Of a stretch of 64,000 nt of DNA, positions 3,548-63,784 are shown one piece after another. Positions within the stretch are counted from its first letter, which is position 1; every line of letters begins with the position of its first letter. The notes beneath the pieces are model-generated. The model saw only the letters and a list, made by a program, of their open reading frames with translations, ran no database searches and had not been told where the DNA came from. Where the stretch lies: assembly GCA_964016885.1 (NCBI GenBank), contig OZ024748.1:50592001-50656000 (forward strand), given 5' to 3'. The stretch is from Eledone cirrhosa. Taxonomy: Eukaryota. The position numbers and the translations under genes were made by a program.

Positions 3548-4124
3548 GTTGCATATTTACTTATCTTTAATAATACATACTGACGCTTATTTTAATTAAC
3601 CATATCAAAGTTTATATGTATGTTTAATTTTGCACAAATATATATTTTTTTATTTTACTTTCTTTTAAGTAAATCACTGAGTATTCGACAGCAAGAATAT
3701 GTTTCCAGTTAGGCTTGTTGGGAGAACTGCCAGTAATAAGTCTTTCGGATTTCTTATGTGATATCTATTAGTCATTCGTATATTCTGGAGTTAAGCATCA
3801 GCCAAGTAGAACAAACATGCCAATATCTTGAAACATGAACAATGACGGAAATCTTGCTGTATTGATAGAAATGTTCGTAAATCAATTAAATATTTTAACG
3901 TAATTATATATGTGTATATATATATATATATATATATATATATATATATATATATATATATATATATATATCTAGGGAGTGTAACTTGGAGTTACTGCAG
4001 GTTCACCCGGATGAACACTCGATGTTTAGGTTCACTTCTGTGTCGAGGTGTAGAGCTATACAGAGTGTATATATATTGAAAAGATAACAAGGTCGATTGG
4101 TTACTCCTTCATTACATTTATTGG

Positions 4125-4215
4125 TAGGTGACGCGCGTTTCGCCACTGATCAGCACAAGGTTCGATCTGTATCGATCTTACCCGACTCTATAATCGGCAG
4201 CTCAACGGACCCTAT
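4125..4215 (-). ncRNA. Type I hammerhead ribozyme, degenerate core (H1)
   Basis: Reverse complement: TAGGGT-CCGTTGA(~CTGATGA)-GCTGC..long insert..GTGGC-GAAAC-GCGC-GTC-ACCTA, then AATAAA. Lies between TA tracts. Confidence 0.65.
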
Positions 4216-5785
4216 AAAATATATAATGTATATATACATATATATATATAAATATATATATATATATATATATATATATATATATATATATATATATATA
4301 TATATATATATATATATATACACATCTGCATACATCTGTATACACACACACACACACACACACACACACACACACACACACATATATATATATATATATA
4401 TATATACATATATTTGTTGACGTAAATCTCTATCAATACGCCTGTATAAATATAGGGATAAACATATGTGTATGTTTGTGCATAAATAACTCTGTGCAAT
4501 ACTGTATGTATATGTATGTGCTTATGGTAGCGTGTGTGTGTGTGTGTGTTTGTTGGTGTATGTCTGTTTGTGTCTGAGTGTGTGTCAGTGTATGTCTGTC
4601 TGTGTCTGTGTGTGTATGTCGGTGTATGTCTGTCTGTGGTAACGTAATTATAATTATGCCAGTGTAATTCACAGAATGTAAGATGACCTTACAGTATAAT
4701 TTTCCAATCACACTAATGTTTACCGACAATCCAAAGATTTGCATTTTGATAAATATCCTTTTGAGAAGGAGGCTTCAAATTATCTACTAATTGAGGAAAT
4801 CAGCTCATTATCGAGCTATTGTTATTCATGTTGGCGTCTTTCATGCTGCTTTTGTTATTAATAGTATTTTTATTCTTTTCATTCAGGTTTTGTAAATGAA
4901 AACACATTTGGTGTCTCTCACTCATAGACAGTCTTCTTCTAGGTCTCCAGCCACCGCCGTCTCTAAATCCTCTCTCCCCTATCCCGACCCCATATCTTTC
5001 CCCTCTCATTCTCCCATCTCTCTCCTTCTCCCCCTCTCTCCCACTCTCTCCTTCTCTCGCTCACATTCTCTAGTTCTTTCACACATACTTTAATTTTTTT
5101 AAATATCAGTGTTACACGCTTTCACTGTTAGTATTAATAGCTCCATACATATATAAACACCTTCTTAAACAAACAGTGATCTGATACTTACACACATACA
5201 TATATATATATATATATATATATATATATATATATGTATATATATATATAAATATATATATATATATATATATATATATATATATATATATATATATATA
5301 TATATATATATATATATATTTATATATATATATATATATATAAATATATATATTTATAAATAAATACATATATATATATATATATATATATATATATATA
5401 TATATATACATAAATACATATATAAATAAATATATATATATATATAAATATATATATATAAATAAATACATATATATATATAAATATATATATATATTTA
5501 TATAAATAAATAAATATATAAATATATATATATGTGTGTGTGTGTGTATGTGTGTGTGTGTATTAGAGGTACATGCATGTAGAGCCATGCTATAAAATAG
5601 ACTGGATGATAAAAACCATCTGTTTCTACATTATATATATATATATGTATACATCATACAAATATATGTATACATAAATATATACATGTATATATATATA
5701 TATATATATATATATATATAATATTATATTATATATACATTTATGCAATCACATTTAGATTTACGGACATATTTGCTATCATTTA

Positions 5786-6482
5786 CTCCTCCACCACCAT
5801 TACCATCGCAAACACCACCACCAGCACCACCAACACCACCATCACCACCAGCACCACCAGCACCAGCAAGTCAAACATCACCAACACCACCAGCACCACC
5901 AGCAAGTCGTACACCAGCACCAGCACCACCAGCAAGTCAAACACCACCACCACCACTACCAGCACCACCAGCAAGTCGTACACCAGCACCACCAGCAAGT
6001 CAAACACCACCACCACCACCACCAGCACCACCAGCAAGTCAAACACCACCACCACCACCACCAGCACCACCAGCAAGTCAAACACCACCACCAACACCAC
6101 CAGCAAGTCGTACACCAGCACCAGTACCATCAGCAAGTCAAACACCACCAATACCACCAGCACCACCAGGAAGTCATACACCAGCACCGCCACCACCGCC
6201 ACCAGCACCACCAGCAAGTCAAACATCACCAACACCACCAGCATCAACAGCAAGTCAAACACCAGCACCAGCACCACCAGCACCACCAGCAAGTCAAACA
6301 CCAGCACCAGCACCACCAGCAAGTCAAACACCACCACCAGCACCACCAGCAAGTCAAACACCACCACCACCACCGCCAGCAAGTCAAACACCATCACCAC
6401 CACCACCACCACCGCCAGCAAGTCAAACACCATCACCACCACCACCACCACCAACAAGTCAAACACCACCATGATCACCATC
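5786..6482. repeat. CCA-rich minisatellite (ccagcaccaccagcaagtcaaaca units)
   Basis: More than 20 variable-length units marked by gcaagtcaaac or gcaagtcgtac. Confidence 0.9.
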
Positions 6483-7794
6483 AACTATATTACACCTTCC
6501 ACTCTACATAGAAATATAATCATTAAAATTTTAAGTTATTGATGAACATTTTTATCTCTTGCTTATCTCCAATGGTTAACGTCACTCTCTCCATATGTTG
6601 GTTCTCCCTAATGACATACTAATGTAATTAATAAAACCCCGAAGGAAGTGATTTACCTGTATTAATGGGAGCACAGGTAGTTGCTTAAAACTAATAGTAA
6701 ATACCATGTTGTAGTTATTTTTAAAGATTTTCTATTCGTTTTCGTTTTGAGTATTTTTGTCCTTATTTTTGTATATTTATTTTTAATATGATTATAAATT
6801 TGTTTGTTTTTCATAAGTGATTATCTTAATTGGAATCCTATAAATTATAAATTATTTAGATGTCTAGGATAAATTAATTATCGATTATTCATTAGTTAAT
6901 AATCATCAGGGATAACATAATAAGGAAAATGATGAAATTACTGAAAGTATGCCTCGATTAATCGGTGTCATGTGTGAGACAAATTGCTCTCCATTACATT
7001 ATAATGCACAGATATAGCAACAACACGATATATGATAGGAAATGTTCAAGAATCATTATCATTACCATAAGGTTTCACATTCTTCTCGATGAAGATTTGA
7101 GTTGGAGGTAATAAAAACACTGACACCTTCAAATTTACGACGTTTTGATTTAGTGTGCCGGATGTATAGACGTAAATTGGCTGATTCGTTACATCGTCAG
7201 ATAAAATAATGTTTATTTATAATTTTTGATTCTGGCACTTTCAGCTCTGAGTTCAAATATCTCCAAGATGAACGGTACGTTAGTTCCTACCGGAGACGAT
7301 AAATACAATACAAATTAAAAACTGGATTAGATTCTCCCCCCCCCCTCTCTCCCTTTCTCTCTCTTTCTCTCCCCTACCCATTCTCTCTTTTTCTCTCTCA
7401 CTCTCGGTAACAGTTATCTTTCTTTTTGTTTGTTTGTTTTTAGAAAGATCAAGAGAGAATCATCCACAACCTCCCTTTCATTAAAAATGGAGAACGGTTG
7501 AGTTAGTACTAAAGCAAGGACAGTTGCGCAGTATAGCAAGGAAGGAACATATATAAACAGATGCCAGATGCAGTTAATTAAGCAAATCAAAATATTGTTT
7601 GTCATGTTCTGAGCCAAAATCAAAGTGTTGTTCCAAACAAAAGTACCTATATATAATTGCTCAACCTACTTAGCAGCCAAATCGTCCTAAATCACGTTCT
7701 ACGTCCACAGAATAGGTCACATTGGTTTCCGTAATCCACAATTATCAATATAAAGATGAGATTGGTACTGATGGAACATCCCGCTCCATAAGCA

Positions 7795-61956: not shown

Positions 61957-62584
61957 ATATATATATATATATAAATATATATATATAAATATATATTTAT
62001 GTGTGTGTGTGTGTGTGTGTGTGTGTGTGTGTATATATTTATTCATTTATTTATTTATTTATAATCATAGTTTAGTGTTTCTGTAGAAGTCGGTCGATCG
62101 ATCAGGATTTTCGAGACAAGAAGGAGATAGTGACGTAAGCACTACCATGCTACTCAATATAACGATCTTCCACGATCAATGAACCCTCTGAAACAATCGT
62201 AATACAAGGAACTAATTATCTACCCATCTCAGACATTTGTCACACGCATACACACACACACACACACACACACATACACACACACAGACATATATATGTG
62301 TATATATATATATATATATATATATATATATGTATATATATGTATCTATATATATATATATATATATATATATATATATATATATATATATATATATATA
62401 TATATATATATATATATATATATATATATATATGTATATATATATATATATACATATATGTATATATGTGTGAGTGTGTGTGTGTTTGCGTGTCTGTGTG
62501 TGTGAGAGTGAGTGTGTGTGTGACAAATGTCAGACATAGTTAGATAATTAGAAGCTTTGGGTTTGATGTATAACATTAGCCGCT

Positions 62585-62756
62585 CGGTAGATGGTCGGAC
62601 GCCATGCTTTGGCGTATAGAGTTACGGCTCTTGCCATTCTGAGTTCAAATCCCGCCGAGATTAACTTTGCCTTTCATCCTTACGGGGTCGATAAAATAAA
62701 GTACCAGTAATGCACTGGGTTATTGATGGCCTTGTGCCAAAACGTAGAAACAATTA
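62585..62756 (+). mobile_element. SINE S1
   Basis: Near-full head, core and tail. Confidence 0.9.
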
Positions 62757-63386
62757 TGCACTCTACTACACGCACCGCTGAATCGGGCAAACATAGTGTC
62801 AACTGTGGAGTTACCGATTACTAGATATTGGCCTACCCAATTAATTTACTACACACTATTATGCTATTAAGGCATTTTTTACCCATTAAAATTAGCAGAT
62901 ATGTAGCTTTGTGTAGGCAAGCATGCGTGCCTGTGTGTGTGTTGTGTAATACAAGAATGCCACGGGGATACGACGAGATTTTAAATGCATCGCAATTAAA
63001 TACTTTTGACAATTTACAAGAAAAGATTTTTAGCAGGAACGAAAAAAATAAAATCCATATATTTTCATATCTACGTTATTTTTCATAATTTAGTTTTTTG
63101 TCAATGAAGTCCTAGCATGAGATACTTAATGATTTAAATACAAGTCAATTATGAATAAAGTAATTAAAGAAATATGCGGTTAATAGAATAATGTTGGAAT
63201 ATGGGGTGGTGGTGGAGGGGGGGGGGCTGGCTTCAGCAGCAGCATTGACGAATGAGGATCAGATTGCTACAACGTTTCAAATACGAAATATTGACTGTCT
63301 AATGCATAATAGAATCAATACAACGTTTAATAACAAACGAACATACTGTTGTTGCTGCTACTGCTACTACTACTAATTCAAATAAT

Positions 63387-63537
63387 AATTGTTTCTACTT
63401 TTGGCACAAGGCCAGCTATTATCCCAGAGTATTACTGGTACTTTATTTTATCGACCCTGTAAGGATGAAAGGAAAAGTTAACCTCGGCGGGATTTGAACT
63501 CAGAATAGCAAGGGCCGTAACTCTATACGCCAAAGCA
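63387..63537 (-). mobile_element. SINE S1, head truncated at a (TA)n tract
   Basis: Core on the minus strand. Confidence 0.88.
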
Positions 63538-63784
63538 TATATATATATATATATATATATATATATATATATATATATATATATATATATATATATGTAT
63601 ATATATATATATATATTTATTAAAATAACAGATTAAAGTTTAAGCAAAGAGTCGCTGCTTTATCCTTATCGAGCCCTCTTTGGATTTTAGTCTTCAAAAT
63701 TATTATATATATATACATATATATACACACACACACATATATATATATATATATATATATATATATATATATATATATGTATGC

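Follow-up and report, generated by a model that had tools for sequence, protein, structure and literature searches.

What are the short islands with hammerhead ribozyme folds that lie in and beside the (TA)n tracts of this 64,000-nt stretch of DNA (the window), and how did they get there? We counted about 14 families across 24 islands (5,412 bp in total), in line with the ten or more families that a reading of the sequence alone (the sequence-only reading) had proposed. In our reading, to which we give a probability of about 0.9, these islands derive from Penelope-like elements (PLEs), mostly of the Hydra clade, and from small non-coding units, in each case as 3' ends that lack their 5' part; they carry predicted type I hammerheads, and target-primed reverse transcription likely placed them in (TA)n. 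The features are listed below, with a strand where a single one applies.

3972-4212, minus strand: family G arm; hammerhead at ~4127-4212 with U4C and A6U, loop III GCGC and a 3-bp stem I; 7 copies, 2 canonical
13429-13807, minus strand: family E arm; intact hammerhead 13717-13800, with the 3' end fixed ~290 nt beyond the cut site; 2227 candidates
13807-14106, plus strand: family F12 arm; intact hammerhead 13954-14033; 2573 candidates
14234-14299: family A-group twin-arm tiny stub; hammerhead 3' half on the minus strand, 18-nt long end on the plus strand
25427-25490, minus strand: family B tail from a ~425-nt retrozyme-like unit, without hammerhead part
27423-27636: family C twin arms (putative Hydra-clade PLE) with the 3' half of a hammerhead bearing U4A
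32171-32277, minus strand: F12-group fragment, a library match alone
39991-40176: family A twin arms with hammerhead 3' halves; the long end is on the left, the short end on the right
40255-40416: older family A-group twin arms
42851-43139, minus strand: family E tail alone, 88% to 13429-13714
43252-43456: family A twin arms, 1251 candidates; the short end is on the left, the long end on the right
43385: RCTC-N16-GAGY hairpin within the family A tail of 43252-43456
43592-43681, plus strand: family A tail, local duplicate
45956-45998, plus strand: family C stub, short end
46575-46970, plus strand: 46637 family arm; intact hammerhead 46637-46717, stem III of relatives 7 bp; 2107 candidates
47086-47367: family D twin arms (putative Hydra-clade PLE); intact hammerhead 47139-47272 (minus strand), loop GATC, overlooked as a full motif in the sequence-only reading
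47413-47556, minus strand: 47447 family arm; intact hammerhead 47447-47508, loop ATAT
56950-57161: family A twin arms
59368-59647, plus strand: 59449 family arm, related to the 47447 family; intact hammerhead 59449-59513, hairpin motif at 59561
59682-59937, minus strand: family B arm whose truncation lies 3' of the hammerhead
60030-60190, plus strand: 60083 family; hammerhead at ~60081-60130; 561 candidates
60540-60714, plus strand: 60630 arm; hammerhead 60630-60676
60820-61315, plus strand: more-than-unit piece (~450 nt); decayed U3-A8-type hammerhead, loop TGCA; one relative (L179)
61372-61774: family D twin arms; hammerhead 3' halves
62066-62240, plus strand: 62077 family, old (~80% identity); hammerhead from 62077; 651 candidates
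63617-63703: family C twin-arm stub

A strict type I descriptor matched the window at 13717-13800 (minus strand), 13954-14033 (plus), 46637-46717 (plus), 47447-47508 (minus) and 59449-59513 (plus) and nowhere else, recovering exactly the five cores previously called intact (13718, 13954, 46638, 47447 and 59451); in each of three dinucleotide-shuffle schemes, 1 of 60 shuffles gave one match. With a slightly wider descriptor, a sixth intact core appeared at 47139-47272 (minus strand, stem II of ~100 nt), and the 6 window matches compare with a single match in 7 of 100 shuffles (0.07 per shuffle), far above the shuffled level, as the sequence-only reading had anticipated. At these six sites CUGANGA, GAAA and UH stand in type I order with stems I to III, whereas the core departs from this pattern at 4125, 60083, 60630 and 62077 and in families A and C. 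Minimum free energy (MFE) folds of the six sites recovered the stems, with the complete three-way junction in some but not all cases. Rfam, which had been proposed as a check, returned no match to a hammerhead model in the window at the gathering score, nor, when two sub-regions were searched, at E ≤ 10; across the whole window at E ≤ 10 there were 551 rows, and the 150 listed were TA/CA-driven miRNA noise and one tRNA. The long stem II and minimal stem III probably place these hammerheads outside the Rfam models. Permuted hammerheads (SGC, CSG, GCS, II and III) did not rise above shuffle level; for type SGC (S-G-C block order, descriptor without extra junction) there were 0 matches in the window and 1 in the genome tiles described below, compared to 1 per shuffle. 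None of the 17 other CUGANGA sites in the window was multi-copy in the sampled loci, and a candidate at 55126-55190 (U3.G8, loop TTAA) that had no relative there was excluded from the family count.

Several structural details proposed from sequence held in part. Palindromic loops III were found at 4125 (GCGC), 47447 (ATAT), 47139 (GATC) and ~61265 (TGCA), while TTAA occurs at the unverified 55126 site alone. The 2-bp stem III is not universal, with 3 bp at 13717, 5 bp in family A and 7 bp in the 46637 family. AATAAA does lie near hammerheads, where it overlaps or follows the A/T-rich stem I; the inserts themselves terminate in (TA)n, without poly(A). Hammerhead 3' halves had been reported for families A to D, letters that were undefined and may not correspond to ours; we found them in A, C and D and at 60820, whereas the family B pieces (25427 and 59682-59937) are tail alone, without any hammerhead part. 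Among the cores called near-intact, those at 60630, 62077 and 60083 have one core change each, but the term is too generous for 4125, which has two changes and a stem I of 3 bp and whose family is canonical in 2 of 7 copies. The U4C at 60630 is private to the window copy (relatives L080 and L082 are canonical), as is the A6U at 62077, where 7 of 9 copies, window copy included, have the canonical core; judged against their relatives, both read as decayed copies. In the 60083 family, by contrast, all 10 of 10 copies carry U3.G8.

Altered cores also mark abundant families. U4A is present in 23,079 of 23,334 family C matches and an unpaired C3.A8 in 1,282 of 4,121 family A matches. For family A, an N7 deletion or G8A was ruled out by U3-A8 copies in unbiased tiles, and the core is best described, from the aligned copies, as U3-A8 with a C3.A8 offshoot. 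A family C fold lacking stem I was likewise rejected; a type I fold with a 5-bp stem I and a 4-bp stem III fits, and the MFE fold differs from it. The core changes U4A, G8A and C3U probably weaken hammerhead cleavage. Some very abundant families have spread with an altered core that likely cuts less well, and the abundance of U4A (C) and C3.A8 (A) cores suggests that cleavage may be dispensable. We found no literature on the activity of U4A, G8A or C3U hammerheads; for the C3-G8 pair, weaker cleavage upon change is documented in PMC11167929.

The proposal that stem sequences differ while pairing is kept was borne out, chiefly in stem II. Among 30 copies gathered by homology, 91.7% of cells were paired, and double changes numbered 59 compared to 22 in shuffled alignments (reached in 0 of 500 shuffles, a control that ignores relatedness); the number of pairs with a double change was equalled by 26 of 500 shuffles. 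Both sides had changed in 9 of 11 stem II pairs, while stems I and III scarcely vary. In family D, an AU block of stem II is exchanged for a GC block.

At other loci, families A, C and D lead into single open reading frames (ORFs) with a reverse transcriptase (RT) followed by a GIY-YIG-type endonuclease, as the 5' extension suggested by the sequence-only reading was expected to reveal; the motifs were read by eye in L103, L136, L160 and L169. The family A ORF has YRDD, DKT in place of DKG, RWR, a CxCX5C linker, and CxxC and CxH around E and N, and by eye it lacks CCHH. The ORFs of families C and D are of the same type, with linker and endonuclease tail likewise visible. At the RWK position, RWR is found in family A and P0001 and RWK in the close homologues P0002 and P0018. 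The tandem unit of family A is 3.54 kb, and partial tandems (pLTR), an inverted 5'-truncated arm and a one-sided tail are present in all three families. By these motifs and this layout, we provisionally assign families A, C and D to the Hydra-clade PLEs. Pfam gave no match in the PLE ORFs, and a protein search gave 2,204 matches at E ≤ 1e-20, nearly all unnamed, and therefore no clade label. There is no PLE ORF within the window, and no ORF or unit was linked to the 59449/47447, 60083, 60630 and 62077 families.

Families E, F12, 46637 and B are organized differently. They recur head to tail at other loci with periods of 684 to 692, 467, 627 and 422 to 429 nt, respectively, as permuted, more-than-unit copies of 425- to 690-nt units with a type I hammerhead; tandem hammerhead arrays of 311 and 467 nt also occur elsewhere in the genome (L166 and L160). 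We saw no ORF borne by these units and no partner ORF tied to them, and they likely borrow their enzyme. An RCTC-N16-GAGY hairpin is shared by family A, the 59449 family and the 46637 unit, and its exact pattern is absent from the C, D, E, F12, B, G, 47447 and 60083 families.

The inserts are head-to-head 5'-truncated arms with fixed internal ends 3' of the ribozyme, the PLE "tail" signature. Measured from the cut site, these ends are 17 and 97 nt downstream in family A, 78 nt in F12 and ~290 nt in E. In six families (A, C, D, E, F12 and 46637) they fall at TA/AT dinucleotides internal to the element. In loci drawn mainly from family A matches rather than at random, TA came next at 63 of 67 long ends of family A and at 44 of 107 short ends (55 read through), and direct same-family junctions were head to head in 119 cases and tail to tail in 3. 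Junctions between different families numbered 3 head to head, 2 tail to tail and 10 tandem, the last mostly library artefacts by eye. In the window, the E and F12 arms at 13429-14106 are fused head to head without intervening TA; because arms also often adjoin unrelated DNA, such a fusion might be a deletion between neighbours. Copies of the 62077 family mostly end at (CA)n.

The window does not stand out within its genome. Tiles of 10 kb, 79 in all and evenly spaced (790 kb), contained 49 intact cores compared to 0 to 1 in each of 10 shuffles, a density of 62 per Mb (bootstrap 41 to 87) that gives an estimated ~1.2-2.6×10^5 intact cores genome-wide; the window density is not above this (P = 0.21). 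A TA tract of ≥12 nt lay within 300 nt 3' of the hammerhead at 31 of 44 testable tile matches compared to a matched background of 0.282 (P = 7e-9), and at 19 of 28 when one match per tile was kept (P = 1.5e-5). On the 5' side, TA was present at 15 of 44 (P = 0.28), and CA and GA were found 3' of 3 and 2 of the 44, respectively; control CUGANGA sites that do not fold had TA in 69 of 561. The TA enrichment that had been predicted is thus specific to TA and to the 3' side and does not extend to the 5' side. Two other expectations failed. The islands would not be largely hidden by repeat masking, since TRF at a lenient score, the one masker run, masks 428 of 5,412 bp (8%); and the implied rarity does not hold, with hammerhead density equal genome-wide and a TA-targeted, hammerhead-bearing Hydra PLE of octopus already described in the available part of PMC8557442.

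Target-primed reverse transcription within (TA)n would begin with cleavage of both strands of a TA tract by the PLE endonuclease. Each DNA end would then act as primer on a tandem or circular RNA that is still uncut, with synthesis beginning at one of its two internal start sites; should the two copies terminate early and become joined back to back, short stubs would retain the hammerhead 3' half alone. The hammerhead itself may process transcripts into monomers and circles and be unnecessary for insertion, so that families with broken-looking cores could still amplify. In the accessible sections of Frangieh 2024 (PMC11167929), a PLE protein cleaves and extends both strands with two internal start sites, and hammerhead mutants still insert. 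That element, Poseidon of Anolis (PAc), shares with the inserts here two internal RT starts 3' of the hammerhead and extension of both strands, but it belongs to another clade, and its starts lack target homology while the ends here lie at internal TA dinucleotides.

TA-rich DNA pairs readily, stems I and III are A/U-rich and invariant in some families, and Rfam is blind to the motifs, all of which could point to chance folds in AT-rich, self-complementary DNA. We give this virtually no credence and count it as refuted by the shuffles (6 versus 0.07 in the window, 49 versus 0 to 1 in the tiles) and by stem covariation; the motifs are also repeated in families whose candidates number in the hundreds to thousands, and they sit just past PLE ORFs. 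It is also improbable that we are looking at a working ribozyme system, in which cleavage would set what is inserted and the copies here would produce RNAs of their own. The six intact cores and the 311- and 467-nt arrays would suit such a system, but 3' ends at 17, 97, 78 and ~290 nt past the cut site, the altered cores of abundant families, and window copies that are all sub-unit or without a second same-strand hammerhead of their own family argue against it.

The TA tracts could instead be mostly products of the insertions, through slippage at an internal TA where synthesis starts, and not targets that were already there. The coincidence of fixed ends with internal TA/AT (A, C, D, E, F12 and 46637) and the confinement of enrichment to the 3' side fit this idea, which we nevertheless consider unlikely: many single-arm copies also have TA 5', different families accumulate in one tract, and (TA)n is the Hydra insertion preference in the available part of Craig 2021 (PMC8557442). 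We see as little prospect for movement of the non-coding units by a LINE, or for their being satellites spread by unequal exchange, as for the ribozyme-driven system. RTE-type LINEs are common in the sampled loci and the E, F12, B and 46637 units have no partner ORF, yet these units share TA-abutting fixed internal ends and inverted arms with PLEs, F12 has two ends ~105 nt apart as PLEs do, and the units carry neither poly(A) nor a simple-repeat tail of their own.

Insertion of Hydra-clade PLE ends and non-coding units into TA tracts, the reading we favor, has close precedents, each compared here with the available part of its source. Hydra-1_Obim of Octopus bimaculoides (Craig et al. 2021, File S1/S2; PMC8557442) is a TA-targeted, hammerhead-bearing Hydra PLE whose hammerhead motif had 0 occurrences in our sampled loci. 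The elements here share with that clade (TA)n insertion, a hammerhead near the 3' end, DKT, the CxCX5C linker, CxxC/CxH around E and N, the inverted 5'-truncated arm and the one-sided tail, and family C has the layout of the File S2 Hydra hammerheads (core followed by U, short stem II, U before GAAA). Family A differs in its length (3.54 kb versus <3 kb), RWR instead of RWK, a 3' UTR of ~1.1 kb, tails of 80 to 130 nt versus 30 to 40, and a non-canonical U3-A8/C3.A8 core, although <3 kb and a canonical hammerhead are general traits of the clade, not diagnostics. That paper has one octopus family and terms additions "a small number," whereas Hydra-like protein matches occur in 17 of our 79 tiles. 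The minimal PLE hammerheads of Cervera and De la Pena 2014 (PMC4209133) resemble those here in their type I fold, short palindromic helix III, additional base preceding stem II and U3-A8 variant, and also in forming many families within one genome, for the most part as truncated, solitary copies; the available text gives 2,000 to 9,000 per genome, compared to our estimated 1.2-2.6×10^5, and does not describe uncompensated family-wide U4A, C3.A8 and U3.G8 cores. Metazoan non-LTR retrozymes (Cervera and de la Pena 2020, PMC7229834; Li et al. 2026, bioRxiv 10.64898/2026.07.22.740005) are likewise non-coding units with one type I hammerhead each, more-than-unit copies and co-occurrence with PLEs. 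They are typically 150 to 450 bp versus 425 to 690 nt here, and the sections at hand report no PLE-type fixed ends in (TA)n; the window copies, sub-unit stubs without two consecutive complete hammerheads, fall outside the two-hammerhead definition of Li et al. 2026 (bioRxiv 10.64898/2026.07.22.740005).

The element class is therefore already known, and the window alone is no discovery. The contribution is one of scale, with intact cores at an estimated 62 per Mb and invisible to Rfam and Pfam here, and of material for two questions open in the literature: the purpose of the PLE hammerhead and which enzyme mobilises animal retrozymes. Open to direct comparison are non-coding units with PLE-type ends and families, both young and abundant, whose cores are canonical, compensated or uncompensated. 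We tentatively suggest, at slightly less than even odds, that this genome amounts to a series of natural knock-outs of the PLE ribozyme and also records one break whose two ends were primed on different RNAs. The masters of that series would be U4A (C, >23,000 copies), C3.A8 (a third of A), U3.G8 and U4C+A6U, all of which kept amplifying. If so, cleavage would be dispensable for PLE spread in vivo, with the fold kept as a scaffold, or these cores would be working variants; and if the 13429-14106 fusion reflects priming on two RNAs, such junctions would tag which PLE mobilises which retrozyme.

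A strict type I hammerhead descriptor recovered in the window exactly the five sites that the sequence-only reading had called intact, with a match in 1 of 60 shuffles under each of three schemes. A wider descriptor added a sixth intact motif at 47139-47272 on the minus strand, and its 6 window matches compare with a mean of 0.07 over 100 shuffles. Rfam returned no hammerhead in the window at the gathering score, nor at E ≤ 10 in two sub-regions. As for the sites proposed as near-intact (each named by its hammerhead start), 60630 and 62077 proved to be decayed copies of canonical families, and the description is generous for 4125, whose family is canonical in only 2 of 7 copies. 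At 60083, the family core is U3.G8 in 10 of 10 copies (a dot marks unpaired or mismatched core positions, a dash paired or compensated ones). We counted about 14 families over 24 islands, in keeping with the ten or more anticipated, but the expectation that repeat maskers would hide them as simple repeat failed, since TRF covers just 8% of island bases. A further hammerhead-like fold with a U3.G8 core and loop TTAA, at 55126-55190 on the plus strand, is without a relative among the loci examined.

We also measured motif density in 79 evenly spaced 10-kb tiles of the 3.0-Gb assembly, or 0.03% of the genome. The tiles contain 49 intact-core motifs spread over 31 of the 79, with 0-1 in each of 10 shuffles, giving 62 intact cores per Mb (bootstrap 41-87). 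The window's 6 motifs are as expected from this density (P = 0.21), and extrapolation from 0.03% of the genome gives an assembly total of about 186,000 intact cores (121,000-262,000). Together, the tile and window motifs (n = 55) fall into 20 clusters. Earlier reports give 126,247 motifs in axolotl and about 5,000 in mussel (PMC7229834), and up to 9,000 (PMC4209133).

To assess stem pairing, we aligned 30 sequences from the 59449 and 47447 families, collected by BLAST whatever their fold and with two false rows and duplicates removed. In this alignment, 91.7% of cells are paired, compared with only 39-50% in slid structures. The proposal that stem sequences vary while pairing is kept was supported, with 59 cells changed on both sides versus 22 after shuffling (0 of 500 shuffles reached 59). 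Double changes fall in 9 of 11 pairs of stem II, one of stem I and none of stem III. Shuffling takes no account of relatedness, and the changes follow a few subfamilies, so we take these counts as support and attach no probability to them.

The window holds 207 TA tracts of at least 12 nt, making up 10% of its bases, compared with 5.7% over the 39 tiles sampled first. All 6 window motifs have TA 40 to 299 nt downstream (background 0.35). After 5 motifs at tile edges were excluded, 44 tile motifs had 300 nt of flanking sequence to either side. In 31 of these, a TA tract lies within 300 nt 3' of the predicted cut, against a background of 0.282 in the same tiles (p = 7e-9), which bears out the suggested enrichment near TA repeats. 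A tract lies 5' of the motif in 15 of 44 (p = 0.28), and the same test gave 3 of 44 for CA and 2 of 44 for GA repeats. When one motif per tile was used, TA was downstream in 19 of 28 and upstream in 12 of 28; non-folding CUGANGA words, as a control, had TA downstream in 69 of 561 cases. The window also carries the following features.

3433-3526, plus strand: tRNA gene (Rfam, 59.3 bits) whose anticodon loop is interrupted by about 20 extra nt; it is likely a tRNA-Tyr with an intron
2006-2148: antisense copy of this tRNA gene (73%)
2815-63536: SINE-like family of about 200 nt, about 24 segments, some in tandem pairs, without a hammerhead
50359-50759: end of an abundant repeat without a hammerhead, abutting TA or TACA repeats and present in 8 of 79 tiles
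2229-2627, plus strand: ORF fragment like a LINE C-terminus, recognized by eye, with no Pfam match
9758-9925 and 10238-10405: inverted pair of 170 nt (79%), outside TA tracts

Extension of family A in the 5' direction led, as foreseen for Penelope-like elements (PLEs), to a reverse transcriptase/endonuclease ORF. It has YRDD and RWR motifs, together with features given for the Hydra clade in section 11 of PMC8557442, namely DKT, a CxCX5C linker and CxxC/CxH flanking E and N. A genome search yielded 1,251 candidates for this family, whose unit has the permuted order hammerhead, two fixed ends, ATG, ORF and 1.1-kb UTR and a repeat period of 3,543 nt. Family C sits at the end of an ORF resembling that of family A, and the family D hammerhead lies downstream of one endonuclease type at four other loci of the genome (L061, L066, L151 and L169; L066 and L169 are colinear). 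Hydra-like protein matches occur in 17 of 79 tiles and canonical-type PLE in 3 of 79. An element of this clade, Hydra-1_Obim of Octopus bimaculoides, is described in File S1/S2 of PMC8557442 as preferring (TA)n and carrying a canonical hammerhead. At L165:7000-7620 and L171:2071-2826, a hammerhead family follows the endonuclease end of a canonical (non-Hydra) PLE. Four families, E (684-692 nt), F12 (467 nt), the 46637 unit (627 nt) and B (422-429 nt), consist of non-coding permuted units, and copies longer than one unit were found for them at other loci. Classical retrozyme-type arrays were seen at L166:8596-9717 (311 nt, four copies) and L160:5231-6106 (467 nt, two copies), each accompanied by an inverted copy.

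The 3' ends of inserts are fixed and lie downstream of the predicted cut rather than at the cut itself. Family A has two such ends, 17 and 97 nt beyond the cut. TA follows the long end in 63 of 67 cases and the short end in 44 of 107, with 55 of 107 reading through. Two ends are also present in F12, C and D, and every fixed end falls on an internal TA or AT. Where arms (5'-truncated insert pieces) of the same family abut directly, they do so head to head in 119 cases versus tail to tail in 3, among loci enriched for family A. The head-to-head arms and fixed ends agree with the inverted arm and one-sided tail known for PLEs, and the insert anatomy agrees with the biochemistry of PAc in PMC11167929, where both strands are cut and extended, there are two internal starts, and ribozyme mutants are still able to insert. 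We infer that both ends of a (TA)n break could prime copying of uncut RNA, tandem or circular, and that early stops in copying would leave stubs keeping only the hammerhead 3' half. A hairpin, RCTC-N12-17-GAGY-RC, sits directly past the family A short end and also in the 59449 tail; it occurs in the window at 43385, 43610, 40037, 40298, 56996 and 59561 (6 matches, five belonging to one family, versus 0.76 over 50 shuffles).

Arms of different families are also joined. At 13807, a head-to-head junction joins a family E arm to an F12 arm; the two share one base and are flanked by TA on their outer sides, and comparable cases were found at L007, L032, L121 and L197. At L194 and L039, an F12 retrozyme arm and a family A arm are each fused head to head to a canonical-type PLE ORF, upstream of the matched arm. 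Such mixed arms may have arisen by deletion between neighbouring insertions.

Exact-pattern matches across the whole genome revealed altered cores. Of the family C matches, 23,079 have A at position 4 and 255 have another base; a hand count of the non-A bases among the matches listed (n = 100) gave 39 T, 38 G and 23 C. In family A, the compensated U3-A8 core, already published (PMC4209133), was found in 2,839 matches and the unpaired C3.A8 in 1,282. The C3.A8 variant is linked to its own neighbouring diagnostics among the matches listed. The U4A and C3.A8 changes would be expected to weaken hammerhead cleavage. The C3-G8 data in PMC11167929 are a further basis for this expectation, and weakened cleavage is predicted for family C U4A and family A C3.A8 RNAs. 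Two further families with a U3-A8 core were seen at L066:3563, L085:3020, L151:8093, L083:9438 and L176.

A literature search on hammerheads in octopus and other cephalopods and on octopus repeats, largely over papers available without subscription, found only Craig et al. (PMC8557442) among the matches listed, and the word "ribozyme" is absent from PMC13282606, on octopus repeats. It is well supported that the window's hammerhead families are real and form a new set within known kinds of element. Their value lies in their scale and in the series of core variants.
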